64,000 nt of DNA. It comes from a virus (lineage: Duplodnaviria; Heunggongvirae; Uroviricota; Caudoviricetes). The notes beneath the pieces were generated by a model. That model was not told the origin of the DNA. It worked only from the letters and a program-made list of their open reading frames with translations, and did no database searches. Positions 14,144 through 50,189 of this stretch are shown piece after piece. Position 1 is the first letter of the stretch. The number at the start of each line of letters is the position of its first letter. Location: positions 1 to 64,000 of IMG/VR virus record IMGVR_UViG_3300032245_001763; one strand, given 5' to 3'. The position numbers were made by a program, and so were the translations under genes.

Positions 14144-14154
14144 AAAGTTTTTTT

Positions 14155-14787
14155 GTGAATTACAAATATCATGTGAGCTATTCTCCAGTTTATTATAATG
14201 ATTATGATTCTTCTGATGAAGAATCAGGTTATCAATATCAATCAATAGATCATGTAAATTTAGAATATGTTATTAGATTTGATATTTCTTTCTTTAAAAG
14301 AAAATATAAAACATCTAACATTATTGACATTTATTGTTTGGAAAGAATTTATAAATTAAATGGAATTTATGATATTTCTAATTTTGAATATTCAACACGT
14401 AAGGATTATTATGGCGATGAAGTAGATAACATTTCATTTATTAAACAATCTAAACTTGATGTTGATATTCAATTATTTTTAAAATTAAAAACAAATAAAC
14501 AAAAGATAGAATATGTTTTAATGAAAGAATACAATTATATTCTTCCAGAAATAAATAACAAAAAAAGCTGGACTGTAAAGTCAATTTCAATTAAAAATAT
14601 TGTTTTTTCTAATTTAAATCATTTTAATAATTTAAACAATGAAATGTTAGAATTTTATTCTAAATCTAAACTTAATTATCCAGTTTGTATTTGTTTGAAA
14701 GATGGAGAAAAATATAGACTTATAGATGGATATCATAGATTTAAATCTATTCCATCTAATTCAAGAAAGATAAACGTTATATGTTAG
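14155..14787 (+). CDS. hypothetical protein with a ParB/sulfiredoxin-like DGxHR motif near the C-terminus
   Basis: YRLIDGYHRFKSI resembles the ParB-like nuclease domain signature. Alternative (GTG) start. Confidence 0.35.
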   Translation: MNYKYHVSYSPVYYNDYDSSDEESGYQYQSIDHVNLEYVIRFDISFFKRKYKTSNIIDIYCLERIYKLNGIYDISNFEYSTRKDYYGDEVDNISFIKQSKLDVDIQLFLKLKTNKQKIEYVLMKEYNYILPEINNKKSWTVKSISIKNIVFSNLNHFNNLNNEMLEFYSKSKLNYPVCICLKDGEKYRLIDGYHRFKSIPSNSRKINVIC

Positions 14788-15047
14788 AAAGTGATTTTTA
14801 TTTGTTGAATGAAAAGTTGAAAATTATTTCTGATATAAATCATAAAAAAGAATTAACTGAATTGGAAAAAAGTGCTGAATTAGAAAAAACAATCAAAATG
14901 TTTAATTATTTTGAAAATTATTTTTTAGAACATAAAAAAATTAAAAGGCAAAAAATGCTTTTTTCATTAAAAAATTTTTTATTAATATTAATATTTTTTT
15001 TGTTTTTATTTGGTATGAATTTTATTGGAATTTATTTTTTTAAATAA
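14781..15047 (+). CDS. hypothetical protein with a C-terminal TM segment
   Basis: ORF track; FLLILIFFLFLFGMNFIGIYFF. Confidence 0.4.
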   Translation: MLESDFYLLNEKLKIISDINHKKELTELEKSAELEKTIKMFNYFENYFLEHKKIKRQKMLFSLKNFLLILIFFLFLFGMNFIGIYFFK

Positions 15048-15093
15048 AGTGATTCACAAGTCTTAAAAATGAAGTATAGTTAATATATAACAT

Positions 15094-15164
15094 AGCCTCT
15101 TGGTGTAATGGCAGCATATATCGCTTTGAACGATCAGGCGTGGGTTCGATTCCCTCATTGGCTA
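15094..15164 (+). tRNA. tRNA-Gln(TTG) with a weak acceptor stem (2 mismatches); possible pseudogene
   Basis: D-stem GTGT/GCAT, anticodon stem ATCG/CGAT with loop CTTTGAA, T-arm GTGGG-TTCGATT-CCCTC. Confidence 0.5.
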
Positions 15165-15298
15165 CTTAGGATTAAATCATATGATTTTTCGAAAAAAACG
15201 TAGAAATAAATTATCTGCTAAAGGTTTTAAGGCAAGAATGATTTCTCTCTTATTAAAGAGAGAACGGCAAAAAAGATTAGAAAAACAAGGAAAAAGAT

Positions 15299-15324
15299 AA
15301 ACCTGCTTAAAGCAGGTTTTTTTA
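15299..15324 (+). terminator. Rho-independent terminator after the tRNA (AAACCTGC-TTAA-GCAGGTTT plus T7)
   Basis: Perfect 8-bp stem plus T-run. A second hairpin TCTCTC/GAGAGA lies at 15244-15263. Confidence 0.6.
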
Positions 15325-15337
15325 TTGGAGCAATTAA

Positions 15338-15580
15338 ATGCATCAAGTATTTGATATAAATCAAACGCCAATAAATGTTGGTGATACAGTGTTTGTTCAT
15401 TTCACTACGGATTCAGAAATAGGTATAGTGGTAGAGATTACTGATTCTCAAACTGTAAATCATCCTGGTTATTATGTTGATGTTAATATTAACAACCAAG
15501 GTCCAACAGGTATTCCCTCTTACATGATTGAAGTTTTTAAATTGAAAAATTTCAAAGGTAAAATGAAAGGCAAGTCATGA
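15338..15580 (+). CDS. hypothetical protein
   Basis: ORF track, 80 aa. Confidence 0.5.
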   Translation: MHQVFDINQTPINVGDTVFVHFTTDSEIGIVVEITDSQTVNHPGYYVDVNINNQGPTGIPSYMIEVFKLKNFKGKMKGKS

Positions 15581-15777
15581 TTTCTCACAAAAAAAAGTAT
15601 GGAGTGTATCATTGGGATACATTTGATAATGAAACAATTCTTGTTACTGAATCAGATGATTTAAATGATTTAAAAGAACAAGTTTTGAAAAAATACAGAG
15701 TTACACCAAGTGGTGCTGACGTTGTTGAAATTGTAAACAATATTGGAACAATTGTTGCTTCTTATAAAATAGGATAA
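15577..15777 (+). CDS. hypothetical protein
   Basis: ORF track; ATGA overlap. Confidence 0.5.
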   Translation: MISHKKKYGVYHWDTFDNETILVTESDDLNDLKEQVLKKYRVTPSGADVVEIVNNIGTIVASYKIG

Positions 15778-15891
15778 TTATGTTTAATTTATTTTTGTTT
15801 TGTTTATTAATGTTGATATTAATGTTGATATTAATGTTTATAAAAATATTATATGTTAAAAGAAATTTACTTAAAAAATTAAGTAATTTGA

Positions 15892-16296
15892 ATGCTTCTG
15901 AAAATACAGAAGACATTCTGTTTGATAGTGGTTCCGAACATATTAAGGATTAATTTAATGGGCTTGGAGTGGATTTTTCTGTTTGTTATTGTTGGATTGT
16001 ATCTTACCACATGCAGTATGAGTTATAATGATGCTTTTCGTCAAAGTAATTATTACTTGCCTTCTACAATTCTTATAGGACTTTTATGTTCTATCATATG
16101 GAATTGTATGGTTAAATATTTAAATGATAAAAATAAAATTTATTTTTATAGTTTGGTATGGGACGTTTGTTCTATCTTCATATATTATGCTTTTCCATTA
16201 ATTTTCTTAAATGTAAAAATTCATAAATTTGGAATTGTTGGTGTTGCTTTAATTATTATAGGTTTGGTCATAGTTAAAATGAATACTGTTGATTAA
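15892..16296 (+). CDS. hypothetical integral membrane protein (4 predicted TM segments)
   Basis: Hydrophobic stretches throughout. Confidence 0.5.
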   Translation: MLLKIQKTFCLIVVPNILRINLMGLEWIFLFVIVGLYLTTCSMSYNDAFRQSNYYLPSTILIGLLCSIIWNCMVKYLNDKNKIYFYSLVWDVCSIFIYYAFPLIFLNVKIHKFGIVGVALIIIGLVIVKMNTVD

Positions 16297-16307
16297 AGGA
16301 TTTATAA

Positions 16308-16967
16308 ATGAAAATTGGATATAAAGCTTCGTATAATTATACTTGTAGAGATCAAAGATACGAAGTTGGTAAAACTTATGAACTTCCATGTAAACCAGAA
16401 CTTTGTAAAACAGGATTTCATTATTGTCAAGATTTGAATGATATTTTTATATATTATTCGATGAATTATAAAACAAATGTTTTTGAAATTGAAGATTTAA
16501 GTGAAGATACTGTTAATTCTAATGGAGAGAATTGTTTTTTGTTTAACAAATCTGCAACTAACAAAATGAAAATTGTTAGAGAAATTTATGATTTTGAAAT
16601 TGTTGAAAACTTACGTTTAAAACATTATTGGGAAAAAGGAAATATTCCTTTTTGTGAAGAAGTAAAGTTGTTAACCTATAAAGCCATAGGTGGTTATTGG
16701 ATAACTAAAATATATAATCATATTAATGATCCAATTTTTTATGTTGATTCTTTTGGGTTGATGGCTTTTTATAAAGATGTGTGTGGTGAAAATATTTCTC
16801 AAGAAATTGAAAATAAAAAATTAAATATTTTATATAAAAATAAGACAAAAGAAAAAGTTTTTAAAGAAACATATAAAACTGGTCATTTTTTAAAAGATGA
16901 TCATGATCTAGATTTTTTTAAAAATGGATTTCGAAAACAAATGTTAGATTCATTAAGTTTTAAGTAG
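16308..16967 (+). CDS. GFHYC-domain family protein (divergent C-terminus, few repeats)
   Basis: N-terminus MKIGYKASYNYTCRDQRYEVGKTYELPCKPELCKTGFHYC. Confidence 0.6.
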   Translation: MKIGYKASYNYTCRDQRYEVGKTYELPCKPELCKTGFHYCQDLNDIFIYYSMNYKTNVFEIEDLSEDTVNSNGENCFLFNKSATNKMKIVREIYDFEIVENLRLKHYWEKGNIPFCEEVKLLTYKAIGGYWITKIYNHINDPIFYVDSFGLMAFYKDVCGENISQEIENKKLNILYKNKTKEKVFKETYKTGHFLKDDHDLDFFKNGFRKQMLDSLSFK

Positions 16968-16980
16968 AAAGTAATAGAAG

Positions 16981-17604
16981 ATGAAAATTGGATATAAAGC
17001 TACATATGATTTTACTTGTCGTCATCACAAGTTTGAAATTGGTCAAATTTACGAATTGTCAGAAAAACCAATTATGTGTTCACGTGGATTTCATTATTGT
17101 AAAGATGCTAAAAATACGTTAAGACACTACAATTACAATAGTCGATTCAAATTGTTAGAAATTGAAGATTTGGGTTTATATACGATTGAACGATCTGATA
17201 AATCTTGTACAAATAAGATAAGAATTATTAGAGAAATTAATGATCCAAATGAATTAATTCAATTACTTGAAGAACATAGAACTTTTAATGAAAATGGCAA
17301 GGAATTAACATATAAAAATTCCACTGGATATTGGCACGAATACACATATGACCAAGATGGCAAGGAATTAACATTTAAAGATTCCAATGAATATTGGCAT
17401 GAATATACATATGATCAATATGATCAAATATTGACGTATAAAGATTCTACTGGATATCAGTACGAATTTACATATGATAAAGACGGTAATAAATTGACAT
17501 ATAAAGATTCTGATAATTACACTTATAATTATACTTATAATAATTATACTTGTGATCAAGGTGAATATGCAATAGAAAGTAATAAAAATGAAAATTGGAT
17601 ATAA
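16981..17604 (+). CDS. GFHYC-domain plus MORN-variant repeat family protein
   Basis: N-domain MKIGYKATYDFTCRHHKFEIGQIYEL...GFHYC...LLEIEDLG...TNKIRIIREI, followed by GKELTYKNSTGYWHEYTYDQD-type repeats. Confidence 0.65.
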   Translation: MKIGYKATYDFTCRHHKFEIGQIYELSEKPIMCSRGFHYCKDAKNTLRHYNYNSRFKLLEIEDLGLYTIERSDKSCTNKIRIIREINDPNELIQLLEEHRTFNENGKELTYKNSTGYWHEYTYDQDGKELTFKDSNEYWHEYTYDQYDQILTYKDSTGYQYEFTYDKDGNKLTYKDSDNYTYNYTYNNYTCDQGEYAIESNKNENWI

Positions 17605-18436
17605 GGGTACATATGATTTTATTTGTCGTGATCATAAGTTTGAAATTGGTCAAACTTATGAATTGCCTAATAAACCCATTTTGTGTAAATATGGTTTTCA
17701 TTATTGCAAGAATGTTTTAGATGTATTAAGTTACTATAATTTAAAACCAAGTTTTAAATTATTAGAAATTGAAGATTTAGGTCACTCTATAACGGATTCA
17801 GATAAAACAGTTACCAATAAGTTGCGTGTTATTCGTGAGGTTCCAGTAGAAGAATTAAATTTGCTTTTTAATTGTAAAATTGAATTTGATTCAAATAAAA
17901 TTACTATCACACAACCAGATGGTTCTTGGAGTTATTTTATTTTTAATGAAAAAAACAATGGAATTTATCATGAAGATTCAACTGGTTTTTGGAGAAAAAA
18001 GTCATACGATGAAAATGATAATTTAGTTAAATTTGAAAATTCGGATGGTGATTATTACAAGCATGAATATAATGAACATGGTAATGAAATTTATTTTGAA
18101 TCATCAACTGGATTTTGGGAAAAGAAAACTTATAATGAGTTTCAAAGTTTAACTTATCTTGAAAATTCAAGAGGCGAATGGATCAAGTATTCATATGATT
18201 CAAAAAACAATTTTCTTTCTGAAGAAAGATCAAATGGAATTTGGATTAAAAACAAATATGATGAAAATAATAATGAAATTTATCATGAAGATTCGTATAG
18301 AACATGGATAAAAAGTAAATATGATTCTAAAAATAATTTGATTTTTCAAGAATCTTCTTATAATAATTGGTTTGAAAATAAAGTTATAATATTTTTTTAT
18401 TTAATAAAATATTGTTTTAGAAAGCTCATAAAATGA
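17588..18436 (+). CDS. GFHYC-domain plus MORN-variant repeat family protein
   Basis: Same N-domain; C-terminal repeats G.W.K..YDENNN. Confidence 0.65.
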   Translation: MKIGYKGTYDFICRDHKFEIGQTYELPNKPILCKYGFHYCKNVLDVLSYYNLKPSFKLLEIEDLGHSITDSDKTVTNKLRVIREVPVEELNLLFNCKIEFDSNKITITQPDGSWSYFIFNEKNNGIYHEDSTGFWRKKSYDENDNLVKFENSDGDYYKHEYNEHGNEIYFESSTGFWEKKTYNEFQSLTYLENSRGEWIKYSYDSKNNFLSEERSNGIWIKNKYDENNNEIYHEDSYRTWIKSKYDSKNNLIFQESSYNNWFENKVIIFFYLIKYCFRKLIK

Positions 18437-19053
18437 AAGTTGGATATAAGGCAACATATAATTATATGTGTCGTGGATTTAAGTATGAAATTGGTAAAAC
18501 TTATGAAATCGAAGGCAAATCAGAATTGTGCGAACGTGGATTTCATTATTGCGAATTACCACATCAAACACTTGCTTTTTATCCTATAAATCCTTATTTT
18601 AAATTACTTGAAATACAAGATTTAGGTAACACTAAAATAGATAAACAAAAGTGTTCTACAAATAAAATTAAAATATTAAGAGAAATAGAAAATGTTGGCA
18701 CATTAAGCACTGCATTACATGGAATGCATGATGCAATATACAAAAATGACAAAAATTATATTGTTTCATCTGGTCTATTTTCAAAATTTAAAGATATAGA
18801 AGAATTTTCATATACAGATATGTCTATGACTTTTGAGAAAAAAATTAAACTTGATTCAAATTATAGAATTATTGAAGAAGAATCTGATAATTACAAGTAT
18901 AGATTTTTTCATACAAAAAATAAAACATACAAATTTTATTATGATAATTTTCCATCAAAGTGCATTTCATATATTGATTACTTTTTTATTAAAATGTTTA
19001 ATAAAGAATCTGTTTATGTTAATAATGGGTCTATTATAGAGTGTGAAAAATGA
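18433..19053 (+). CDS. GFHYC-domain family protein (repeat-poor)
   Basis: MKVGYKATYNYMCRGFKYEIGKTYEIEGKSELCERGFHYC. Confidence 0.6.
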   Translation: MKVGYKATYNYMCRGFKYEIGKTYEIEGKSELCERGFHYCELPHQTLAFYPINPYFKLLEIQDLGNTKIDKQKCSTNKIKILREIENVGTLSTALHGMHDAIYKNDKNYIVSSGLFSKFKDIEEFSYTDMSMTFEKKIKLDSNYRIIEEESDNYKYRFFHTKNKTYKFYYDNFPSKCISYIDYFFIKMFNKESVYVNNGSIIECEK

Positions 19054-20111
19054 AAACAGGATATATTCCAACATATAAAACATTTAATATAAATGATATC
19101 ATTGATTCTAAATTTACTTATTATAAAGATCCTTATGATTTATCTGAAGTAAGTATTTATAATGAAAATTTTCATTTATATGAAATTGAAGATCTTGGTC
19201 AAACTAAACCAAGCATGTTTAACAATGATTTTTTTACTAATAAAATAAAAATATTAAGAGAAGTTACCAACAAAATTGAATTAGAATCTTTGATTGGTAA
19301 AGTTGAATTGAAAAATGATTTATATACAAAATATTTTCGTGATATGTATGTTAAATACAAATTTGATGAAAATAATAATTGTATTTATTTCGAATATCGA
19401 AATGGTTATTGGTTAAAAAATCAATATGATGAAAGAAATAATAAAATTCATTTTAAAGATTCAAATGGTTACTGTATCGAATATAAATATGATGAAAGAA
19501 ATAATAAAATTTATTCCGAAAGTCCAAATGGTGTTTGGGAAAAACATGAATATGATGAAAGAAATAATAAAATTTATTATGAAAATTCAGATGGTACTTG
19601 GTTCAAAACTCAATTTGATGAAAGAAATAATTGTGTTTATTATGAACATTCAAAAGGTGATTGGGAAAAATGTGAATATGATGAAAACAATAATAAAGTA
19701 AGTTCTGAAACTTCAAGTGGCTTTTGGAAAAAATATTCATATGACGAAAGAAACAATTTAGTTTATTGTGAATTAAAAGATGGATGGGTAAAATATAGAT
19801 ATGATGAACGAAATAATCCTGTTTATGTTGAGCATTCAACTGGTAATTGGATAAAAAAAGAATATGATGAACGAAACAATATGATTTACATAGAATCACA
19901 TGATGGATGGTTTAATAAAATAGGTTATAATGAATATAATCAAATAATTAGTGAATATTTAAAAGGTTATATTTTAAAAAATGTTTATGATGAATTTCAA
20001 AAAGTTAAAATTAAATCTAATGAAATAGGTAGATATTTAACAAAAAGCAAATCTGGTTTACAACAACTGACTTCCCAGTCCAGAATCACTGTAAACGACA
20101 GTCAAATTTGA
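19050..20111 (+). CDS. MORN-variant repeat protein (about 11 YDERNN.IY.E.S.G.W.K repeats) with a degenerate N-domain
   Basis: Repeats such as WLKNQYDERNNKIHFKDSNGYCIEYKYDERNNKIYSESPNG. Confidence 0.65.
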   Translation: MKTGYIPTYKTFNINDIIDSKFTYYKDPYDLSEVSIYNENFHLYEIEDLGQTKPSMFNNDFFTNKIKILREVTNKIELESLIGKVELKNDLYTKYFRDMYVKYKFDENNNCIYFEYRNGYWLKNQYDERNNKIHFKDSNGYCIEYKYDERNNKIYSESPNGVWEKHEYDERNNKIYYENSDGTWFKTQFDERNNCVYYEHSKGDWEKCEYDENNNKVSSETSSGFWKKYSYDERNNLVYCELKDGWVKYRYDERNNPVYVEHSTGNWIKKEYDERNNMIYIESHDGWFNKIGYNEYNQIISEYLKGYILKNVYDEFQKVKIKSNEIGRYLTKSKSGLQQLTSQSRITVNDSQI

Positions 20112-20252
20112 TTCTCAAAAAATTTTTAAAAAACTTTTCAAAATTCGATTCACAACACATAGATACAACCATATAATGAGATATGTTTAGAATGTTCAAG
20201 GAATTACATTAGGAAAAAATTTAAATTTCTTAAATCTTTGTCTAAACAAATT

Positions 20253-20326
20253 GCCGCTGTGCCAGAACTGGATATGGGCTACTCTTGTAAAGTAGATAAA
20301 TGTGGGTTCGAATCCCACCGGCGGCT
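20253..20326 (+). tRNA. tRNA-Thr(TGT)
   Basis: Acceptor GCCGCTG/CGGCGGC, anticodon stem CTACT/AGTAG with loop CTTGTAA, T-arm GTGGG-TTCGAAT-CCCAC. Confidence 0.65.
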
Positions 20327-20486
20327 CTTCAAAATTTTTTATTAAAAGAAAGTTATTAAAATGATCACAATGTTCACAACAATACATATAGCTACAACAA
20401 GCCCAGCTTGTGTGGAAGCGTGCGTAGTTGCTGAACCGATGGCGGAGGCGTTTATGTGATCAACGAGTTCATATGGTATGTATGAA

Positions 20487-20523
20487 AAAGCCTCGTTGGT
20501 CAAAACAACGAGGCTTTTTTTGT
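20487..20523 (+). terminator. Rho-independent terminator (12-bp stem AAAGCCTCGTTG/CAACGAGGCTTT plus T-run)
   Basis: Perfect inverted repeat followed by TTTTTTTGTT, downstream of a GC-rich patch at 20395-20460. Confidence 0.65.
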
Positions 20524-20526
20524 TAT

Positions 20527-20600
20527 AACAACTTGGCTGATTTGGTTTAGGCACCACTCTCATAAGGTGGCTTAGATGGGTTCGAATCCCATAGTTGTTA
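20527..20600 (+). tRNA. tRNA-Met/Ile2(CAT)
   Basis: Acceptor AACAACT/AGTTGTT, anticodon stem CCACT/GGTGG with loop CTCATAA, T-arm ATGGG-TTCGAAT-CCCAT. Confidence 0.65.
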
Positions 20601-20604
20601 CTTT

Positions 20605-20675
20605 CACCGATTAGTAAAATGGTATTATCTCTGTTTGACGTACAGAAGTAAAAGGTTCGATTCCTTTATCGGTGA
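20605..20675 (+). tRNA. tRNA-Val(GAC)
   Basis: Perfect acceptor CACCGAT/ATCGGTG, anticodon stem TCTGT/ACAGA with loop TTGACGT, T-arm AAAGG-TTCGATT-CCTTT. Confidence 0.65.
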
Positions 20676-20677
20676 CT

Positions 20678-20748
20678 TGATCTTTGGTGTAATGTTAGCA
20701 TAATAGCAGATGGTGCTTTAGGAAACGGTTAAATTCCGTTAAGATCAA
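20678..20748 (+). tRNA. tRNA with the unusual anticodon loop AGATGGT (anticodon ATG?, His-like); identity uncertain
   Basis: Perfect acceptor TGATCTT/AAGATCA, D-stem GTGT/GCAT, T-arm AACGG-TTAAATT-CCGTT. Confidence 0.5.
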
Positions 20749-20751
20749 TTT

Positions 20752-20970
20752 ATGTGGTATGGTGGTTCTATAAACAATTATAAATCTTCTAAACAATCTA
20801 TGTCTAAACAAAGATTAAACGCAATTAATCTTTATTTAAAAAAACATAGAAAATTAAAAGATTTTAATGCTTTAGACGAAATTCATTCTTGTCTTGAAAA
20901 TTATGATGATATCATTGTTAATCTAGATAAAAATGCATTTCCTATTCATATAAATTTTATAATCCCTTAA
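20752..20970 (+). CDS. hypothetical protein; its 3' end overlaps tRNA-Val(TAC) by 10 nt
   Basis: ORF track, 72 aa. Confidence 0.4.
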   Translation: MWYGGSINNYKSSKQSMSKQRLNAINLYLKKHRKLKDFNALDEIHSCLENYDDIIVNLDKNAFPIHINFIIP

Positions 20971-21032
20971 TCTAGCGGCTAAGAGATCACTTTTACACAG
21001 TGGTAACGTCAGTTCGAGTCTGACAGGGATTA
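20961..21032 (+). tRNA. tRNA-Val(TAC)
   Basis: Perfect acceptor AATCCCT/AGGGATT, D-stem ATCT/AGAT, anticodon stem CACT/AGTG with loop TTTACAC, T-arm GTCAG-TTCGAGT-CTGAC. Confidence 0.65.
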
Positions 21033-21048
21033 CTTGTTTTTAAATTAT

Positions 21049-21124
21049 CAGGGTGTGGGCTAATTGGTAAGCCACCTAGTTAGGGGCTAGGATATACATG
21101 GGGATTCGACTTCCCCCACCTTGA
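21049..21124 (+). tRNA. tRNA with anticodon loop TTAGGGG (AGG, Pro-like?) and an 8-nt variable region; identity uncertain
   Basis: Acceptor CAGGGTG/CACCTTG, D-stem GGCT/AGCC, anticodon stem CCTAG/CTAGG, T-arm GGGGA-TTCGACT-TCCCC. Overlaps the 3' end of the minus-strand ORF 21080-21826. Confidence 0.45.
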
Positions 21125-21826
21125 CTGTTTTAAATTAATGATGTTAGAGATAATTGTTAAAAATTCTTTAGCTTTATTTTCTTTAAAATGTTTAAAATTT
21201 GATGTGTCAATAATACAAAGTTCAATATTGTTTTCTAAGCAAGCTTGAAATTTTCTATTATCATTATTTTTAATTTGATTTAACTTATTATCACCATAAA
21301 TTGGCTCATAGTGGAAAATTCCATTTAATTCAAAAGCTAATTTTAATGATGGAATGTAAATATCAAGTTCAGAATTGATTGCATCTTTTTTGTTAAATTC
21401 AAAATAAAGTTTTGGATGAAGAATTGGTAATTGCAATTCTAACCAAAATTCTAATTTAGATCTTCTGTAACCTTTTATTTTATGTGTGTTATTATAAGTT
21501 GCAGCACAAGATTTAGAACAGAAATTATTTTTAGTAACTTTAATTTGATTTAATTGTTTGGTAAATTCTATGTTGCATTGAGCACAATTAACTTTTTGTT
21601 GAGTTATTTTTGCTAAGTTGGAACATTTTTTTGAACAGTACAAACAACCGTTTGCGTATTGCATACAGTTTTTTGAACATGGTTTTAAATGATTTTTATG
21701 TAAATTTGTTTGGGAAATATACCTTTTCTTTTTGTAAAATGTACATTTGCATTTCAAACAAATTAAAGATAAGATATCATCCGAATTTGCTAAATTAAAT
21801 TCATCAATTGAAAAGTTAGTTTGCAT
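21080..21826 (-). CDS. Cys-rich zinc-ribbon protein with a C-terminal DUF559/Vsr-like (PD-(D/E)xK-fold) domain
   Basis: N-terminal CxxC pairs (CLKCKCTF, CMQYANGCLYCSKKC, CAQC, CSKSC). C-terminus DIYIPSLKLAFELNGIFHYEP...DNRKFQACLENNIELCII matches the DUF559 core D..iP...laiE.dG..H...D..R...L...G..v.R. Confidence 0.5.
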   Translation of the reverse strand: MQTNFSIDEFNLANSDDILSLICLKCKCTFYKKKRYISQTNLHKNHLKPCSKNCMQYANGCLYCSKKCSNLAKITQQKVNCAQCNIEFTKQLNQIKVTKNNFCSKSCAATYNNTHKIKGYRRSKLEFWLELQLPILHPKLYFEFNKKDAINSELDIYIPSLKLAFELNGIFHYEPIYGDNKLNQIKNNDNRKFQACLENNIELCIIDTSNFKHFKENKAKEFLTIISNIINLKQSRWGKSNPHVYPSP

Positions 21827-21833
21827 AATTTAT

Positions 21834-21877
21834 ATAGTAGTCAGATTCGAAATTTAAATTTCGAATCTGACTACTAT
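21834..21877. other. Perfect 22-bp/22-bp inverted repeat with no loop (ATAGTAGTCAGATTCGAAATTT|AAATTTCGAATCTGACTACTAT)
   Basis: Read directly from the sequence. It sits between the 5' end of the minus-strand gene 21080-21826 and the downstream tRNA block. Confidence 0.6.
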
Positions 21878-21995
21878 GACTGGATTAAATAAAGTAATAC
21901 TTAAATTTGTTACTCTTAAAAGAAATTTCAAGAGTCGAGGCGTGTGACCAAAGCAGCGTAATGGCTTTTCTGTATACGGTAAGCAGAATTTATAT

Positions 21996-22066
21996 CAGGG
22001 TATGGTATAGTGGGAGTACAGGAGATTTGGGATCTTCTAGCAGTTGTTCGATTCAACTTACCCTGA
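21996..22066 (+). tRNA. tRNA-Pro(TGG)
   Basis: Perfect acceptor CAGGGTA/TACCCTG, anticodon stem GGAGA/TCTTC with loop TTTGGGA, perfect T-arm AGTTG-TTCGATT-CAACT. Confidence 0.7.
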
Positions 22067-22160
22067 CTTTATTAGAATGATAGAAGGAATACATTTACAA
22101 TCTCCACCAAAATTAGGGGACTAAATATCTTTTTAGACTTTGTCTAATAAATTTTTATAT

Positions 22161-22229
22161 GGGGCGTCCAACGGGTTGGTACTGTGTTTTGCACATACGG
22201 TTTTATGGGTTCAACTCCCATACGCTCCA
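22161..22229 (+). tRNA. tRNA-Ala(TGC)
   Basis: Acceptor GGGGCGT/ACGCTCC, anticodon stem TGTGT/ATACG with loop TTTGCAC, T-arm ATGGG-TTCAACT-CCCAT. Confidence 0.6.
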
Positions 22230-22246
22230 ATAATTTTTGTTTAAAT

Positions 22247-22508: not shown

Positions 22509-22511
22509 TAA

Positions 22512-27441: not shown

Positions 27442-28020
27442 ATGAAAACAGGATATAAAGCTACTTATGATTATATTTGTATCAATCATAAGTTTGAAAT
27501 TGGTCATTCTTATGAATTATCACATAAGCCAATTCCTTGTCAATATGGGTTTCATTATTGCGTAAATCCGAAAGATGTTTTGCATTATTACCCAATTCAA
27601 CATAAGTTTCGTTTACTTGAAATTGAAGATTTAGGTGAATCAATTACTGAAGGTGATAAATCGGTAACAAATAAAATTCGAATTATTCGAGAAGTTCCAA
27701 AAGAAGAATATTATCCTTTATTTGGTATTGTTAATAATAAATTAAAGTTTGTTAACATATTTGGTTGTTTGGAAAAACGTGAATTTGATGAAAGAAATAA
27801 TTGTATTTATTATGAAAAATCAAATGGTGATTGGCAAAAATACACATATGATGAAAGAAATAATAAAATTCGTTATGAAGAGTCGGGTGGATATTGGGTA
27901 AAACATGAATATGATGAAAGAAATAATCAAATTTATTATGAAGATTCAAATGGTTATTGGGACAAATACACATATGATGTAAACAATAATTATTTGAAAA
28001 CAGAAAGAGGACATAAATGA
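27442..28020 (+). CDS. GFHYC-domain plus MORN-variant repeat family protein
   Basis: MKTGYKATYDYICINHKFEIGHSYEL...GFHYC...LLEIEDLGESITEGDKSVTNKIRIIREVPKEEYYPLFG, then YDERNN repeats. Confidence 0.65.
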   Translation: MKTGYKATYDYICINHKFEIGHSYELSHKPIPCQYGFHYCVNPKDVLHYYPIQHKFRLLEIEDLGESITEGDKSVTNKIRIIREVPKEEYYPLFGIVNNKLKFVNIFGCLEKREFDERNNCIYYEKSNGDWQKYTYDERNNKIRYEESGGYWVKHEYDERNNQIYYEDSNGYWDKYTYDVNNNYLKTERGHK

Positions 28021-28753
28021 AAACTGGATATAAAGCTACATACGATTTTATTTGTCTAGATCATAAATTTGAAATAGGTCAAACTTATGAATTACAAGGA
28101 ACTCCAATTCCTTGTGAATATGGATTTCATTATTGTGTAAATTCGAAAGATGTGTTGAAATATTATATAATTAAACGTGATTTTCGCGTGATTTTCGATT
28201 ACTGGAAATTGAAGATCTTGGAGAATCAATCGTTAAAGAAGATAAAACTGTAACAAATAAATTACGTGTTGTTCGAGAAGTTCCAAAAGAAGAATATTAT
28301 CCTTTGTTTGGGATTATTAATAACGAATTAACAATTACTAAGTCATCTGGTAATTGGGAAAAACGTAAGTTTGATGAAAGAAATAATTGTATTTATCTTG
28401 AATATTCAAATGGTTTTTGGTCTATACATGAATATGATGAAAATAATAATTTAATTTATGTTGAATATTCAAATGGTGAATGGAAAAAATACAAATATGA
28501 TGAAAATAATAATTTAATTTATGTTGAATATTCAAATGGTGAATGGAAAAAATACAAATATGATGAAAGAAATAATCTAATTTATTCTGAAAGTTCAAGG
28601 GTTTATTGGGTAAAACGAACATATGATGAAAATAATAATGAAATTTATTATGAAGATTCATCTGGTGATTGGAAAAAACGCAAATTTGATCAAAATAATA
28701 ATTGTATTTATTATGAAAAATCAAATGGTTATTGGCAAAAAAAACACATATGA
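28017..28753 (+). pseudogene. GFHYC/MORN-family gene disrupted by an 11-bp tandem duplication (CGTGATTTTCG) at about 28192-28202. It is split into ORFs 28017-28253 and 28304-28753.
   Basis: Actual AAACGTGATTTTCGCGTGATTTTCGATTACTGG versus the paralogue-expected AAACGTGATTTTCGATTACTGG (K-R-D-F-R-L-L-E-I-E-D-L-G). Removing the 11 bp restores LLEIEDLGESIVKEDKTVTNKLRVVREVPKEEYYPLFGIINNELT in frame. Confidence 0.7.
28435..28560 (+). repeat. Perfect 63-bp tandem duplication (2 copies), equal to one 21-aa MORN-variant repeat unit (EYSNGEWKKYKYDENNNLIYV)
   Basis: 28435-28497 is identical to 28498-28560. Confidence 0.8.
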
Positions 28754-28792
28754 TGAAAGCAATAATTGCTTAAAAACAGAAAGAGGACATAA

Positions 28793-29308
28793 GTGAAAAC
28801 TGGATTCAAAGCAACCTATAATTTTATTTGTTTAAATCACAAGTTCGAAATTGGCAAAACTTATGAGTTACCAAGAACTCCAATTCCTTGCGAATATGGT
28901 TTTCATTATTGTGTAAAACCAATTGACGTTCTTGAATATTATCCAATTCAACATGATTTTCGTTTGTTGGAAATTGAAGATCTTGGAGAATCAATCGTTA
29001 AAGAAGATAAAACTGTAACAAATAAGATTCGGATTATTCGAGAAATTCCAAAAGAAGAATATTATCAACTATTTGGAATTATCAATAATGAATTAAAATA
29101 CTTCACCAGATTTGGCAATTGGATAAATCAAAAATTTGATGAAAGAAACAATCCAATTTATTATGAATATCTAACTGGTTATTGGACAAAACGTGAATAT
29201 GATGAAAGAAATAATCTTATTCATTCTGAAGACTCATTTGGCTATTGGGAAAAACATGAATATGATGAAAATAATAATCTTTTAACAAAAGAAATAGGAC
29301 TCAAATGA
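28793..29308 (+). CDS. GFHYC-domain plus MORN-variant repeat family protein
   Basis: MKTGFKATYNFICLNHKFEIGKTYELPRTPIPCEYGFHYC. GTG start; ATGA overlap with the next gene. Confidence 0.6.
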   Translation: MKTGFKATYNFICLNHKFEIGKTYELPRTPIPCEYGFHYCVKPIDVLEYYPIQHDFRLLEIEDLGESIVKEDKTVTNKIRIIREIPKEEYYQLFGIINNELKYFTRFGNWINQKFDERNNPIYYEYLTGYWTKREYDERNNLIHSEDSFGYWEKHEYDENNNLLTKEIGLK

Positions 29309-29910
29309 AAACTGGATATAAAGCTACTTACGATTATATCTGCAGAGATCACAAGTTCGAAATTGGTAAAACTTATGAGTTATCAAGAACTCCAATTCTT
29401 TGCAAATATGGTTTTCATTATTGTCTAAAACCAAAAGACGTTTTAGATTATTATCCAATCAATCAAGAGTTCCATTTATTAGAAATTGAAGATTTAAGTA
29501 GTCAAACACAATTAGATTATTTTAAGCGTATTAGTGTTACTAATAAAATTAGAATTATCAGAGAAATAGTTGATAAAAAAGAATTTTTAAATCTGTTAGG
29601 TAGTTATCATCAGTATGATGATAACAAAAATTTAATTTATTCTGAATATACAAATGGTTATTGGAAAAAGTTTTACTATGACGAATTAAATCGTTTAGTG
29701 TTCAACACGGACTCGGATAATCTGTGGTTTAAACGTAAATATAATAAAAATAGCAGATTAATTTATTATGAAGATTCATTTGGTTATCATGAGTGTTTTG
29801 AGTACGATGAGAATGATTGTAAAACTTATTATAAAAATTCAACTGATGGCGAATTTAGATACACATATGATCAAAATGTTGTAAAAATTCAAAAATTGGA
29901 GTCTAAATGA
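29305..29910 (+). CDS. GFHYC-domain plus MORN-variant repeat family protein
   Basis: MKTGYKATYDYICRDHKFEIGKTYELSRTPILCKYGFHYC. Confidence 0.65.
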   Translation: MKTGYKATYDYICRDHKFEIGKTYELSRTPILCKYGFHYCLKPKDVLDYYPINQEFHLLEIEDLSSQTQLDYFKRISVTNKIRIIREIVDKKEFLNLLGSYHQYDDNKNLIYSEYTNGYWKKFYYDELNRLVFNTDSDNLWFKRKYNKNSRLIYYEDSFGYHECFEYDENDCKTYYKNSTDGEFRYTYDQNVVKIQKLESK

Positions 29911-30398
29911 AAACAGGATATAAAGGTACTTATAATTACGTTTGTAAAAATCAAAAGTATGAAATTGGAAGTTCATATGAATTATTATTTGAACCACGTA
30001 TTTTTTCATGTGGATTTCATTATTGTCAAAAAGCTTCTAATGTTTTATTGCACTATCAAGATTATGTTTTTGAATTTAAACTCTTAGAAATTGAAGATTT
30101 AAGTAATTGTGCAGATACTTATTTTGATTCTGATAATTATTCTACTAACAAAATTAGAATTATTAGAGAAATTAGTGATAAAACTGAGTTATTGAAATTA
30201 CTTGGTAGATATCATGAGTTTAATTCAGACAAAAATGTTACTTATTGGGAATCTTCTGATGGTCGTTGGGCAAAATACAGCTATAATCATCATGGAGACT
30301 TATGTTTTTTAGAAGATTATAACGGTGTTAAGTGTGAATTTATCTATAATTCTGATAGAAGGTTTTTAAAAACAAAAATGTATGAAAACAAATTTTAA
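29907..30398 (+). CDS. GFHYC-domain family protein
   Basis: MKTGYKGTYNYVCKNQKYEIGSSYELLFEPRIFSCGFHYC. Confidence 0.6.
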   Translation: MKTGYKGTYNYVCKNQKYEIGSSYELLFEPRIFSCGFHYCQKASNVLLHYQDYVFEFKLLEIEDLSNCADTYFDSDNYSTNKIRIIREISDKTELLKLLGRYHEFNSDKNVTYWESSDGRWAKYSYNHHGDLCFLEDYNGVKCEFIYNSDRRFLKTKMYENKF

Positions 30399-33515: not shown

Positions 33516-34145
33516 GTGAATTTGTTAAAACGTATAAAAAACAATCTGTTTAGAGTAGGTTATAAAGCAACATATAATTATATGTGTCGAGATCATAAGT
33601 TCGAAATTGGTCAAACTTATGAATTGCCATATAGACCAGTTACTTGTCATTGTGGTTTTCATTATTGTAAAAATCCAAAAGATGTATTAAGATACTACCC
33701 AATTAATCCAAAATTTAAATTACTGGAAATAAAAGATATTGGGAAAACATCTTGTGAGGGTGATAAGCGTGCTACAAATAAAATTAAAATATTAAGAGAA
33801 ATAACTGATCATTCTGAATTAGAATTTTTGTTAAAATGTAAATTCAAAATTGAAGAAAATTATTATTGTTTGTGGCATGAAGATGGTTTCGATGAATACA
33901 AATGGAATGAGCAAGATCAAATTGTATATTATAACAATCAAAATAATAAATGGTACAAAAAAACATATGATAACAATGGCAGATTGATTTTCATGGAAAA
34001 AAACAATTATATTGAAGAATATAAATATGAAAACCATATGAAATATTTCAGGTTTGTTAGTGGAAACAAAAAAACAAGTAAAGACAAATTGTTTAGAAAA
34101 ATTAGTTATAAAGGTTGGAAATTGTATGATCAACGCTGGCTATAA
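33516..34145 (+). CDS. GFHYC-domain family protein
   Basis: VGYKATYNYMCRDHKFEIGQTYELPYRPVTCHCGFHYC. Confidence 0.6.
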   Translation: MNLLKRIKNNLFRVGYKATYNYMCRDHKFEIGQTYELPYRPVTCHCGFHYCKNPKDVLRYYPINPKFKLLEIKDIGKTSCEGDKRATNKIKILREITDHSELEFLLKCKFKIEENYYCLWHEDGFDEYKWNEQDQIVYYNNQNNKWYKKTYDNNGRLIFMEKNNYIEEYKYENHMKYFRFVSGNKKTSKDKLFRKISYKGWKLYDQRWL

Positions 34146-34275
34146 AGCAACGATTAATTGTAAGTCACTACATGATGATGTACAATATGAAGTTGGAAAA
34201 GAGTATTCTTTAGAGGGTATGCCATTAATTCATTGGCAAGGGTTTCATTATTGTAATTATCCAGAAAGGTTTTGA
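34126..34275 (+). CDS. Short GFHYC-domain-only family member
   Basis: MINAGYKATINCKSLHDDVQYEVGKEYSLEGMPLIHWQGFHYC. Confidence 0.35.
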   Translation: MINAGYKATINCKSLHDDVQYEVGKEYSLEGMPLIHWQGFHYCNYPERF

Positions 34276-34881
34276 ATGTTTAATTTATTTGATATTTATA
34301 AAAGATACAAATATGGAATTGGATATAAATCTACTTATAACTATAAAGGAATGAATGATTTTCAATATAATGTTGGTGAAACATATGAAATTAAACAAAA
34401 GCCTGTAGTTTGTTTTAATGGTTTTCATTATTGTATAAATCCACATGATGTTTTAAATTATTATCCAATTTTTGCTTCATCAAATTTTTTTGAAGTAAAA
34501 GCTTTGGGCAAAATTCATGTTGATCTGCAAGAGGGTAAATTTGCTACTAATAAAATGAAAATTGTTAGAGAAATAACCGATAAAGAAGAAATGAATAATC
34601 TATTTGGATTTTATGTTGAAAAACAAGAAAGCAAAACTATTATTCATTGTAAAAGGAATCCAGATTTTTTCGAAGAATACACTAAGGTGGACCCAACATT
34701 AATTGAACGAGAAGCTTATTTGTGTTTCACAGGTCCGATGATATCTGAATACACAAATAAACATTATGATTACTATATTTATAGTAATAGTCATGGATTT
34801 AGGTATCTTATTGAAACATATAAAGATTCTTCAAGAGCAATTAAAAAATATTATTTCAACAATAATGCAAGGTTTCAATAG
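34276..34881 (+). CDS. GFHYC-domain family protein
   Basis: GIGYKSTYNYKGMNDFQYNVGETYEIKQKPVVCFNGFHYC. Confidence 0.55.
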   Translation: MFNLFDIYKRYKYGIGYKSTYNYKGMNDFQYNVGETYEIKQKPVVCFNGFHYCINPHDVLNYYPIFASSNFFEVKALGKIHVDLQEGKFATNKMKIVREITDKEEMNNLFGFYVEKQESKTIIHCKRNPDFFEEYTKVDPTLIEREAYLCFTGPMISEYTNKHYDYYIYSNSHGFRYLIETYKDSSRAIKKYYFNNNARFQ

Positions 34882-48900: not shown

Positions 48901-49605
48901 ATGAAAATTGGATATAAAGCTACCTACGACTATATTTGCAAAGATCATAAATTTGAAATAGGTCAATCTTATGAACTAAAAAAACCTCCAATTCTTTGCA
49001 AATATGGTTTTCATTATTGTGTAAATTCAAAAGATGTTTTAGAGCATTATCCAATTCGACATAATTTCCGTCTATTGGAAATTGAAGATCTTGGTGAATG
49101 TATTCATTCTGACGATAAATCAGTAACGAACAAAATTCGTATTGTAAGAGAAATTTCAAAAGAAGAATATTATTCTTTGTTTAATGTGGTTAATAACGAA
49201 TTAACAATTACTAATAAACATGGCAGTTGGGAAAGACGTACGTTTGATAAAAACAATAATGAAATTTTCTACCAAACTTCATTTGGAAATTCGGAAAAAC
49301 GAGAATATGATGAAAGAAATAATCAAATTTATTTTGAAAATTCAAATGGTTTTTGGATAAAATATGAATATGATAAAAACAATAATATAATTTATTTATA
49401 TAATAAATGTGGTTTTTGGGAAAAATATGAATATGATAAAAACAATAATATAATTTATTTTGAAAATTCAGATGGTTATTGCCTAAAACGCGAATACGAT
49501 GAAAATAACAATATTATTTTTTATGAAGATAGTGAAGGCAATTGGACAAAGCGTTCATACGATGAAAATAACAATTGTATAAAAGTAGAAAGAAATAAAA
49601 CATGA
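48901..49605 (+). CDS. GFHYC-domain plus MORN-variant repeat family protein
   Basis: MKIGYKATYDYICKDHKFEIGQSYELKKPPILCKYGFHYC, then YDKNNNIIY repeats. Confidence 0.65.
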   Translation: MKIGYKATYDYICKDHKFEIGQSYELKKPPILCKYGFHYCVNSKDVLEHYPIRHNFRLLEIEDLGECIHSDDKSVTNKIRIVREISKEEYYSLFNVVNNELTITNKHGSWERRTFDKNNNEIFYQTSFGNSEKREYDERNNQIYFENSNGFWIKYEYDKNNNIIYLYNKCGFWEKYEYDKNNNIIYFENSDGYCLKREYDENNNIIFYEDSEGNWTKRSYDENNNCIKVERNKT

Positions 49606-50189
49606 AAATTGGATATAAAGCTACCTACGACTATATTTGCAGAGATCATAAATTTGAAATAGGTCAATCTTATGAATTACAAGGAACACCAATTCCTTGC
49701 GTTTATGGATTTCACTATTGTCAAAATCCAATCGATGTTTTACATTATTATCCAATTCAACATGATTTCCGTCTATTAGAAATCGAAGATATTGGCGAAT
49801 CAATTACTCAAGGTAATAAATCAGTAACAAATAAGATCCGTATTATTCGTGAAGTTCCAAAGGAAGAATATTACCAGCTATTTGGTGTTGTTAATAATAA
49901 ACTGACAATAAGTGCTGGTATATTTGGTGCTTGGGAAAGACGAACATTTGATGAAAATAACAATGAAATTTTTTATCAAAATTCAGATGGTAATTGGGAA
50001 AAACGTGAATATGATGAAAGAAATAATTGTATTTATTATGCAACTTTATCTGGGTTTTGGATAAAACGTGAATATGATGAAAGAAATAACGAAGTTCGTT
50101 TTGAAAATTCAAGTGGTTTTTGGATAAAACAAACATTTGATAAAAATAATCGTAGAATTAATTATGAATCTAATTATGACAAAGTTTGA
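49602..50189 (+). CDS. GFHYC-domain plus MORN-variant repeat family protein
   Basis: MKIGYKATYDYICRDHKFEIGQSYELQGTPIPCVYGFHYC. Confidence 0.65.
   Translation: MKIGYKATYDYICRDHKFEIGQSYELQGTPIPCVYGFHYCQNPIDVLHYYPIQHDFRLLEIEDIGESITQGNKSVTNKIRIIREVPKEEYYQLFGVVNNKLTISAGIFGAWERRTFDENNNEIFYQNSDGNWEKREYDERNNCIYYATLSGFWIKREYDERNNEVRFENSSGFWIKQTFDKNNRRINYESNYDKV

Follow-up and report, generated by a model that had tools for sequence, protein, structure and literature searches.

The window, by which we mean the whole 64-kb stretch of phage DNA that was analyzed (64,000 nucleotides), carries 15 members of one gene family, and the ~531-kb circular phage genome holds at least 33 copies. Thirteen of the window members are intact, and the other two are a frameshifted gene (28017-28795) and an N-terminal fragment (34054-34275). 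They form four tandem clusters on the + strand (16308-20111, 27442-30398, 33516-34881, and 48901-50189), in which six junctions of adjacent member genes are 4-nt ATGA overlaps. Common to all members in alignment A1 is the N-terminal motif M-K-x-G-Y-K-A-T-Y...C...G-F-H-Y-C...L-L-E-I-E-D-L-G...T-N-K-I-R-I-I-R-E. A family HMM searched against the six-frame translation of the window found every member with E values of 1e-21 to 1e-49 (4e-9 for the fragment) and matched nothing else. A preliminary description of this DNA had already noted the four clusters, the tandem arrangement with ATGA overlaps, the shared Cys/His motif, and one inactivated member, all of which we recovered; its count of more than 17 genes must be corrected to the 15 given above.

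Each intact protein consists of an N-terminal domain of ~95 aa, termed here the head, followed by 21-aa YD-type repeat units or by a nonrepeat C-terminus. The members are as follows.

16308..16967, + strand: 219 aa; DUF7666 head and nonrepeat C-terminus, zero YD units found (Pfam DUF7666 E 2.6e-16; family HMM E 2e-39)
16981..17604, + strand: 207 aa; head and 4 YDQDGKELTYKDS-type YD units (Pfam; family HMM; TRF 63-nt period at 17294-17510)
17588..18436, + strand: 282 aa; head, 7 YD units, and a short hydrophobic tail (Pfam; family HMM; NCBIfam RHS_core E 4.9e-8); ortholog P0124 is 92% identical and of equal length
18433..19053, + strand: 206 aa; head and nonrepeat C-terminus (Pfam DUF7666 E 1e-20; family HMM)
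19050..20111, + strand: 353 aa; degenerate head and 11 YD units, the longest array (family HMM E 3e-21; RHS_repeat 27.8 bits, cutoff 22)
27442..28020, + strand: 192 aa; head and 4 YD units (Pfam; family HMM)
28017..28795, + strand: frameshifted member (11-bp tandem duplication at 28177; A8 tract at 28737-28744; exact 63-bp duplication at 28435-28560); removal of the 11-bp duplication and the A8-tract disruption yields 256 aa and 7 YD units
28793..29308, + strand: 171 aa, GTG start; head and 3 YD units (family HMM; protein P0004 is 99% identical)
29305..29910, + strand: 201 aa; head and about 4-5 diverged YD units (Pfam; family HMM; ortholog P0122 is 87% identical)
29907..30398, + strand: 163 aa; head and about 2 diverged YD units, counted by eye (one unit by regex; repeat-HMM match not significant, E 2.4; family HMM; ortholog P0027 is 95% identical)
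33516..34145, + strand: 209 aa; N-terminus extended by 12 aa, then head and 2-3 diverged YD units (Pfam; family HMM); ortholog P0121 is 88% identical and of equal length
34054..34275, + strand: N-terminal fragment that ends just past the GFHYC motif (family HMM E 4e-9, profile positions 3-43 only)
34276..34881, + strand: 201 aa; head without C13 and nonrepeat C-terminus (the top-scoring member in Pfam, E 2.7e-24; family HMM)
48901..49605, + strand: 234 aa; head and 6 YD units, the protein chosen for AlphaFold (Pfam; family HMM)
49602..50189, + strand: 195 aa; head and 4 YD units (family HMM)

Identity and conserved residues of the head

A profile check of the N-terminal domain identified it as a named Pfam family, DUF7666 (PF24703; E about 1e-15 to 1e-24), which the preliminary description had missed and which is widespread in phages. 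The gathering score of 27 bits is exceeded by 12 of the 13 intact members, and nine of the ten scanned members reach 57.6-85.9 bits; the exception, member 19050-20111, yielded no DUF7666 match in the Pfam scan. All 126 members in alignment A3 match DUF7666, which also corresponds to PHROGs 14105, 4433, and 9215. A literature search found no paper on the family and no member with a known function.

Over 259 domains, K6, H38, and C40 are each conserved at 99%, followed by Y50 (98%), E60 (94%), K73 (93%), R83 (92%), and E62 (83%), and N77 is also conserved. The residues C13, C33, H38, and C40 are conserved at 95-99% over the same domains, and together these residues may form a metal site. Judged from conservation, K6, C13, C33, H38, C40, Y50, and E60 would fit either a noncanonical active site or a Cys3His zinc site. 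The cysteine of position 33 is displaced by two residues in member 29907..30398. In member 19050-20111, K6, C13, C33, H38, and C40 are all lost, and this paralog looks like a pseudo-enzyme in which the conserved site is gone and the array is longest.

Repeat type, copy number, and selection

The tails are YD/Rhs-type repeats. The 45 units repeat with a period of exactly 21 aa (63 nt), where a range of 21-24 aa was first described, and the unit signature is G-x-W...Y-D-x-x-[GN]-x-[LIV]; arrays range from 0 to 11 units, in agreement with the earlier estimate of 0 to about 11. The repeats match Pfam RHS_repeat (PF05593), NCBIfam RHS_core (E 4.9e-8 to 1e-4), and solved Rhs structures. RHS_repeat scores above its cutoff in member 19050 only and below it in the other members; the same protein matches the Rhs structure 8h8a with an E value of 9.5e-9. 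In the predicted structure of member 48901..49605, there are two strands per 21 residues, such that residues 100-232 form one beta-hairpin per unit, and Foldseek matches the model to Rhs proteins, teneurins, TcB/TcC, and the single-layer sheet of OspA.

The repeats had previously been likened to MORN_2 (YwqK-type) repeats. We rejected this assignment given the 21-aa period, the YD signature, and the complete lack of MORN-family matches at E<=1 in ten members; moreover, no MORN protein is present among the top 50 Foldseek matches.

An Rhs-type polymorphic toxin was likewise considered and rejected. The largest array has 11 units, against many tens in a closed Rhs shell, RHS_core scores are only 20-31 bits (cutoff 2000), and the DPxGL autoproteolysis motif, an N-terminal plug, and a C-terminal toxin domain are absent from every member.

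The evidence supports a lineage-specific paralog expansion in this phage, with a constant N-terminal domain and a repeat number that varies from protein to protein. The copies, at least 33 in number, would have arisen by tandem gene duplication, and arrays would lengthen by duplication of 63-bp units. One such duplication at 28435-28560, which had been reported as fresh, is indeed exact, and period-63 identity spans 75 nt. However, another assembly of the same genome has a 100-N scaffold gap at window position 28549, on the duplication itself, and therefore the repeat count there is uncertain and may be an assembly effect.

Between paralogs, dN/dS of the N-terminal domain is 0.12-0.4 and dS ranges from 0.5 to over 1; the paralogs are old and under purifying selection. 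Orthologs that are 87-95% identical have the same length or differ by two residues, with repeats and head equally well conserved. Because orthologs keep their repeat number, the family is not rapidly diversifying, contrary to what had been proposed.

Predicted fold and genomic context

AlphaFold produced a confident model for member 48901..49605 (pLDDT 91.4, pTM 0.80; head alone pLDDT 94.1). It revealed a likeness, overlooked in the preliminary description, of the head to ADP-ribosyltransferases (ARTs). The two best Foldseek matches of the head model are Arr (probability 0.97, TM 0.55-0.57), with E values of 0.06-0.09 that are not significant alone, and the closest solved structures are BC2332 (PDB 2aua), the NAD lobe of Tpt1/KptA, and Arr. 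Our reference for the superfamily was SCOP d.166.1, and SCOP places the BC2332-like and Tpt1/KptA families within the ADP-ribosylation superfamily (PMC3000352). From the model, the DUF7666 head is predicted to be a minimal ART fold with a split beta-sheet.

Profile methods gave no corresponding signal. The hhalign comparison of the family with Arr and Tpt1 profiles gave probabilities below 1%, Pfam matches down to E<=10 included no ART family, and hmmsearch against solved structures recovered no ART chain. Canonical ARTs carry H-Y-E, R-S-E, or H-H-h motifs on strands 1, 2, and 5. In the head, the near-invariant candidates K6-x-T8, H38-x-C40, and E60-x-E62 lie on the expected strands, as judged by secondary-structure order only, and would form a noncanonical motif.

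In other phages, the DUF7666 gene is nearly always single-copy and lies just after a cro-like gene in the early operon. In 76 viral contigs, it follows the cro-like HTH gene, precedes SNF2/replication genes, and is opposite a cI-like repressor, and in Pseudomonas phage phi2 the homolog is in the early region beside repressors. This location by the cI/cro switch in ordinary phages fits the host-interaction role suggested earlier, and expression in this phage is probably early as well. No conserved macro-domain or antitoxin neighbor of the gene was found. The members lack signal peptides and transmembrane segments. In the window, the clusters are found amid small + strand ORFs and tRNA genes, and the flanking genes with Pfam matches on record encode thioredoxin, a kinase-like protein, PTH2, and HNH, while most others have none.

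Elsewhere in the genome, a WGR+PARP gene lies at a distance of 1.3 kb from one DUF7666 cluster, and a gene for an ADP-ribosylglycohydrolase (ARH) is 6 kb from the same cluster; other clusters adjoin RNA ligases and are found 3 kb from an NAPRTase. Note that proximity to PARP and ARH genes is weak evidence in so densely packed a phage genome.

Interpretation and comparison with known systems

We favor, with a probability of about 0.4, the reading that the members are early cytoplasmic effectors in which an ART-fold head with putative catalytic activity is joined to target-selecting YD arrays. The ~95-aa head would be the constant module of each effector, probably made early. Its functional site, we infer, would comprise G4-K6-T8, G36-H38-C40, and E60-x-E62 on the same faces of three strands, together with Y50, K73, N77, and R83, and the tail of 0-11 YD units would give each paralog its own binding partner. 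The most likely chemistry would be an NAD+-dependent transfer of ADP-ribose onto a protein of the host or onto a nucleic acid, or at minimum NAD+/ADP-ribose binding, and the outcome would serve host takeover or counter-defense. The joint loss of K6, C13, C33, H38, and C40 in member 19050 is consistent with this reading. Weighing against it are the lack of a sequence-level link to any ART family, a K/H/E-x-E triad that is not a canonical ART motif, and the lack of a conserved macro-domain or antitoxin partner. In addition, the highly conserved Cys3His set resembles a structural zinc site, and because H38 and C40 share a strand face, a zinc role would leave no catalytic histidine.

That last concern leads to a possible, if rather unlikely, alternative wherein the head is a noncatalytic adaptor or inhibitor, a pseudo-ART whose fold is held by the Cys3His zinc site and which performs no NAD+ chemistry. 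Acting together, head and array would then be stoichiometric binders of host proteins or nucleic acids, such as decoys or inhibitors directed at host defense or replication factors. The conservation of C13, C33, H38, and C40, the i, i+2 spacing of H38 and C40 on one strand, and the absence of both a canonical motif and sequence similarity to ARTs agree with such a protein, as do the modules paired with DUF7666 in the wider family (YD, pentapeptide, and MORN_2), which are all elongated beta-repeat scaffolds of the sort that typically serve binding or mimicry. However, the near-invariant polar residues K6, Y50, E60, E62, K73, N77, and R83 exceed the needs of a purely structural site, and the domain persists in one lineage that lacks C13. 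The ortholog P0141 of that lineage also has Ser for C40, which is the residue at the matching position of the Tpt1 VHLS motif. An RNA-directed Tpt1-like enzyme, using NAD+ on RNA or DNA phosphate ends for phage tRNA repair or protection, is improbable: the Tpt1 catalytic tetrad lies largely in a separate RNA-binding lobe that is missing from the head, the hhalign comparison with Tpt1 is not significant, at least 33 paralogs with differing arrays are hard to fit to a single repair reaction, and ordinary phages place the gene by the cI/cro switch rather than beside RNA-repair genes. What recommends it is the neighborhood: outside the window, PF09414 RNA ligase genes are immediate neighbors of two DUF7666 clusters, and in the window 31 tRNA genes form an array around cluster 1, and a gene for the peptidyl-tRNA hydrolase PTH2 precedes cluster 4. 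Such an enzyme would remove 2'-phosphates or ADP-ribosylate 5'-phosphates in concert with the adjacent RNA ligases and the phage's very large complement of tRNAs, its YD arrays holding RNA or a partner protein.

We consider it quite improbable that the members are virion or adhesion components, with YD arrays as carbohydrate- or receptor-binding strips and the head as an attachment module. Families of paralogous virion proteins are common in huge phages, and teneurins and Rhs proteins display their YD repeats outside the cell or at a surface, but the window members are small, at 163-353 aa, and contain no recognizable tail-fiber domains. Moreover, the gene in ordinary phages lies between cro and replication genes, far from structural modules, and in the window the glycosyltransferase/structural-like block is on the other strand, at 51.7-62 kb. 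The MORN_2/YwqK-like immunity or superinfection-exclusion function of a polymorphic-toxin-like system, as envisaged in the preliminary description, is highly improbable. The tandem expansion of the family in a mobile genome suits it, and the distant family member P0147 (1149 aa) joins DUF7666 heads to repeats that by eye are MORN_2-like. Yet the repeats here are of the YD type, the recorded Pfam matches of the cluster-flanking genes include no toxin-like domain, no PADLOC model matches, and selection has been purifying.

The preferred effector reading has a stronger form that we advance tentatively and regard as unlikely, in which DUF7666 is a hitherto unrecognized family of very small ART-fold enzymes whose site is K...H-x-C...E-x-E and whose genes phages keep at the front of the early operon, and in which the YD-array paralogs of this phage are a combinatorial ADP-ribosylation toolkit. 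If true, this toolkit would mark many different host proteins or nucleic acids in takeover or counter-defense. For this widespread phage family, which has no assigned function, the predicted ART-like fold offers a lead that biochemistry can test.

The nearest relatives are DUF7666 proteins of other phages, including Rheinheimera phage Barba19A gp048 ('pentapeptide'), Pseudomonas phage phi2 gp13, and a Clostridioides phage AR1086-1 hypothetical protein. These small proteins share the ~95-aa N-terminal domain, the invariant K6, G36, H38, and C40, and a beta-repeat module behind the domain. They are single-copy and often have pentapeptide repeats and a further C-terminal domain, whereas the genome studied here has 15 copies in 64 kb, and nearly all of its copies carry YD repeats. 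Compared with BC2332, Tpt1/KptA, and Arr, the head has no detectable sequence similarity, is even smaller, has Lys where those ARTs have His or Arg at the first motif position, and bears three conserved cysteines without counterpart. The phage ARTs T4 Alt, ModA, and ModB and the anti-CRISPR AcrIF11 differ in having canonical catalytic motifs, no repeat arrays, and one to three copies per genome.

Rhs/YD polymorphic toxins and teneurins share the unit of about 21 aa with one beta-hairpin each, but arrays of 2-11 units are too few for a closed shell, and the ART domain of Rhs toxins is variable C-terminal cargo, whereas the ART-like domain here is N-terminal and constant. Giant viruses have repeat-protein multigene families (ankyrin, MORN, FNIP, and others) that likewise show massive tandem amplification inside a single, very large genome. 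Those families belong to eukaryotic viruses and use other repeat types, without the constant enzyme-like head that is present in the phage family described here.

Family members and the genome that carries them

The window shows a real and extensive expansion of a phage family that is known but uncharacterized, in which a DUF7666 head is joined in most members to a tail of YD (Rhs-type) units. By running an HMM built from the first 100 residues of the members on a six-frame translation of the whole window, we recovered exactly 15 loci (E values of 1e-9 to 1e-49) and no further ones. Therefore, the window contains 13 intact genes, which occupy 13% of its length, one frameshifted gene, and one N-terminal fragment, rather than the more than 17 genes counted in the preliminary description of this DNA. 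The N-terminal consensus reported there agrees with the member alignment, and the ATGA overlaps (4 nt) are found at six junctions between neighboring genes.

Family clusters in the window (ORF listing)
16308–20111, + strand: cluster 1, five tandem genes
27442–30398, + strand: cluster 2, five tandem genes, one of them broken
33516–34881, + strand: cluster 3, two genes and a fragment
48901–50189, + strand: cluster 4, two tandem genes

One member (17588–18436) has a short hydrophobic C-terminal tail (VIIFFYLIKYCF, at 18380–18436) that is kept in its orthologue P0124 and is present in no other member.

The window proteins are also encoded on a 530,789-bp ENA scaffold (KRAE22-1_SAMEA4981813_METAG-scaffold_3) and on an ~102-kb contig from another assembly. 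Positions 12899–28548 and 28549–34016 are identical to the scaffold apart from a 100-N gap at 28549, and positions 59018–64000 are identical to its far end. Because the window bridges both scaffold ends (~1–55.8 kb maps to the near end, with the join at ~55.83–55.88 kb), the overlap implies an ~531-kb genome that is circular or circularly permuted. Within the ~150 kb of this genome examined, the HMM count gives a total of at least 33 members, including those on four scaffold pieces.

Family members on pieces of the scaffold
L001, scaffold 445–466 kb: 4 members
L085, scaffold 363–383 kb: 5 members and a fragment
L087, scaffold 498–518 kb: 4 members
L089, scaffold 429–449 kb: 3 new members and one divergent member

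A 320-kb IMG/VR contig (IMGVR_UViG_3300032245_001746) appears to belong to the same phage because its genes score identically to those of one scaffold cluster. A search with 20 kb of the window matched no nucleotide-level relatives among deposited phages. The G+C content of the window is 26.7%, and its + strand encodes 31 tRNAs (1181–22509), an array that encloses family cluster 1. Among the phage-type genes, HNH and PTH2 lie in the window, and GP88, HU, RNA ligases, and TnpB lie in other parts of the scaffold. Several tRNAs are longer than usual (Trp, 80 nt; Asn, 92 nt; His, 86 nt), and a 2-base anticodon is given in two of the ARAGORN calls (3012–3085 and 7534–7604). Two Cys-rich proteins are encoded inside the tRNA array (21080–21826, − strand; 22899–24116, + strand), and the larger matches DUF4379. 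Near the window start, an ORF translation (91–549, − strand) with four copies of R/Q-IK(I/M)LFCIFCT points to a tandem DNA repeat.

The inactivated member noted previously is gene 28017–28795, which has two frameshifting lesions: an 11-bp tandem duplication (GTGATTTTCGC/GTGATTTTCGA) at 28177 (28177–28198) and an A8 tract at 28737–28744. Taking out the duplication and one A yields a 256-aa, seven-unit protein whose reading frame closes with a GTGA overlap into the following gene. The 531-kb scaffold shows the two lesions as well; the two assemblies have different ENA analysis accessions, and the lesions may derive from sequencing or assembly error. The same gene carries the 63-bp duplication at 28435–28560 that had been described as fresh. 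The duplication is indeed exact; however, the scaffold gap at 28549 falls precisely within it, which leaves the unit count at this point uncertain and perhaps an assembly effect.

YD repeat arrays and their evolution

All well-preserved arrays have a period of exactly 21 aa (63 nt). Seven intact genes carry 3 to 11 clear units each, and the frameshifted gene carries seven; in another three genes the units have diverged, and genes 16308, 18433, and 34276 (named by start coordinate) have none. The unit consensus, S-x-G-x-W-x-K-x-x-Y-D-E-[RN]-N-N-x-I-Y-x-E-x, reads as the YD signature with Asn replacing Gly/Arg. Repeats of the 11-unit protein match Pfam RHS_repeat (27.8 bits versus a cutoff of 22), and repeats of the family match NCBIfam RHS_core (E values down to 4.9e-8) and solved Rhs proteins (8h8a, E value of 9.5e-9). 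Given these matches and the absence of any MORN-family match at E≤1 in ten members, the earlier reading of the units as MORN_2/YwqK-type repeats is ruled out, and the proposed immunity role falls with it to the extent that it rested on that classification. The repeat HMM found no ORFs in the window consisting of YD repeats only. A 162-aa protein that consists solely of YD-type repeats and has no DUF7666 head adjoins the family cluster of L001 (11405–11893).

Unit types differ from gene to gene, and Tandem Repeats Finder (TRF) reports periods of 63, 126, and 189 nt, which fits array growth through duplication of units inside individual genes. Between paralogues, the N-terminal domains show dS values from 0.5 to >1 and dN/dS ratios of 0.12 to 0.4. 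Orthologues from related contigs are 87 to 95% identical; of the four, one differs in length by 2 residues and the others match exactly in length. The repeats of these orthologues show no less conservation than the head (for example, 11 differences in 187 residues compared with 12 in 95). Judged by these values and the array unit types, the family is old, kept by selection, and sub-functionalized, and it does not show the rapid diversification originally proposed.

Predicted fold and conserved residues of the DUF7666 head

The head matches Pfam DUF7666 (PF24703; E values of 1e-15 to 2.7e-24) as well as PHROGs 14105, 4433, and 9215, all of which are annotated as having unknown function. Our literature search on DUF7666 found nothing relevant and no description of its function, and PADLOC models gave no match that would place the members in a defense system. 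An AlphaFold model of member 48901–49605 (234 aa; 99-sequence alignment; pLDDT 91.4, pTM 0.80) has a compact head (residues 1–95) followed by two strands per repeat, and its Foldseek matches as a whole are to Rhs, teneurin, TcB/TcC, and OspA-type sheets. For the head alone (126-sequence alignment; pLDDT 94.1), nearly all of the 60 matches listed in a structure search have the ADP-ribosyltransferase (ART) fold. Independently, Foldseek ranks Arr first and second, with a probability of 0.97, TM scores of 0.55 to 0.57, and E values of only 0.06 to 0.09. SCOP places the BC2332-like, Tpt1/KptA, and CC0527-like families in the ADP-ribosylation superfamily (PMC3000352), and an earlier structure-based analysis matched the local site of BC2332 to that of diphtheria toxin (PMC3024214). 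The models, the structural matches, and the SCOP grouping together make it likely that DUF7666 has an ART-like fold. Note that no significant link to ARTs was obtained with hmmsearch of the family profile against solved structures, with hhalign against Arr-2 alone, an Arr family profile (120 homologues), or a Tpt1 NAD-lobe profile (three sequences), or with 126 members compared against Pfam at E≤10.

Conservation was computed across 259 unique DUF7666 domains. The most constant positions are K6, G21, G36, H38, and C40 (99% each), followed by Y50 (98%), C13 and Y24 (97% each), C33 (95%), E60 (94%), K73 (93%), R83 (92%), N77 (85%), and E62 (83%). The residues in each of three sets (G4/K6/T8, G36/H38/C40, and E60/E62) share one face of a single predicted strand, and the order of secondary structure elements parallels that of Arr and of the Tpt1 NAD lobe when compared by eye. 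In the same visual comparison, GYKAT aligns with (Y/L)HGT, GFHYC and the following helix with VHLS or IYIT and a helix, and LLEIE with LLIV or FIVE. These strand faces and this parallel order suggest a candidate K...H-x-C...E-x-E active site.

The same residues can be read another way. A set of three Cys and one His conserved this strongly would be compatible with a structural Cys3His zinc site, and a metal site is what the preliminary description itself had suggested. The main rival is a zinc-stabilized, noncatalytic version of the head, which we hold to be somewhat less probable than the best explanation given below. The profile comparisons with Arr and Tpt1 were not significant and give no sequence support for catalysis. 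In paralogue 19050, which has the longest array, K6, C13, C33, H38, and C40 are lost together and the fold-determining residues are kept. The 34276 lineage lacks C13, and in its orthologue P0141 C40 is also replaced by Ser.

Phage context and proposed role

The DUF7666 profile is matched by ~4,600 clusters at 50% identity, and the domain is nearly always N-terminal in proteins of 130 to 390 aa. Partner modules across the wider family are YD repeats and pentapeptide-like repeats. Among P0129, P0147, P0166, P0169, and P0174, homologues from the wider family, the head is found joined to pentapeptide-like N-x-G-x-x repeats and a conserved C-terminal domain, and some proteins have two heads; in one case (P0147), the partner repeats instead resemble MORN_2 by eye. 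The domain is not the widespread housekeeping one against which the preliminary description had weighed a mobile or defense association, because a pattern-limited scan of 185,579 bacterial species genomes returned only 33 loci, mostly in Firmicutes.

The domain occurs in 190 records of cultured phages, whose hosts include Pseudomonas, Salmonella, Clostridioides, Bacteroides, and Vibrio, and nearly all of these genomes carry a single copy. The gene lies in the early region beside repressor genes in Pseudomonas phage phi2 and amid small early-type genes in Rheinheimera Barba phages. At 76 IMG/VR loci, the conserved neighbors are a divergent cI-like HTH+S24 repressor, a cro-like HTH gene that is adjacent on the upstream side, Bro/KilAC antirepressors, and, immediately downstream, an SNF2 helicase; no conserved macro-domain or antitoxin partner was found at these loci. 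By gene order, the DUF7666 gene sits at the start of the early lytic operon, in a conserved position right after the lysis–lysogeny switch.

Further genes were observed near the clusters of the ~531-kb phage. In the L087 region 1741–17557 (~13–22 kb past the window 3′ end), a PF09414 RNA ligase lies between the genes of the four-gene cluster, and a PRPP-synthetase-like gene lies upstream. The cluster is followed at 1.3 kb by a gene for a WGR+PARP protein of 529 aa and at 6 kb by one for an ADP-ribosylglycohydrolase of 331 aa. A second DUF4379 protein adjoins the PARP gene. On L089, a NAPRTase-family gene (13139–14338) is 3 kb downstream of the cluster, and on L001 another PF09414 RNA ligase (8392–9378) is directly upstream of the cluster, such that two clusters abut RNA ligases. 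Just upstream of cluster 3 in the window, a 213-aa protein (32540–33181) weakly matches protein kinases (PF00069). In so densely packed a phage genome, the NAD+/ADP-ribose theme near the clusters is weakly suggestive.

Our best explanation, to which we assign a probability of roughly 40%, is that the family would constitute a set of early cytoplasmic effectors in which a constant head with an ART fold is combined with YD arrays that may select the targets. New here are the prediction of an ART-like fold for DUF7666, the finding that its place in the early operon is conserved across phages, and the scale of its expansion in an ~531-kb phage. With this confident fold prediction, a domain lacking a known function becomes a matter for biochemistry in tractable phages. 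If the head is an enzyme, then it would be a new minimal ART class in the phage–host conflict repertoire, and its expansion would be an unusual case of a single phage deploying dozens of modifiers with different targets. Should the head be a zinc-stabilized pseudo-ART, it would remain an early phage adaptor that is widespread and merits characterization. Unlike Rhs toxins, the family proteins are without a DPxGL motif or a toxin domain, and their YD arrays have 11 units at most.
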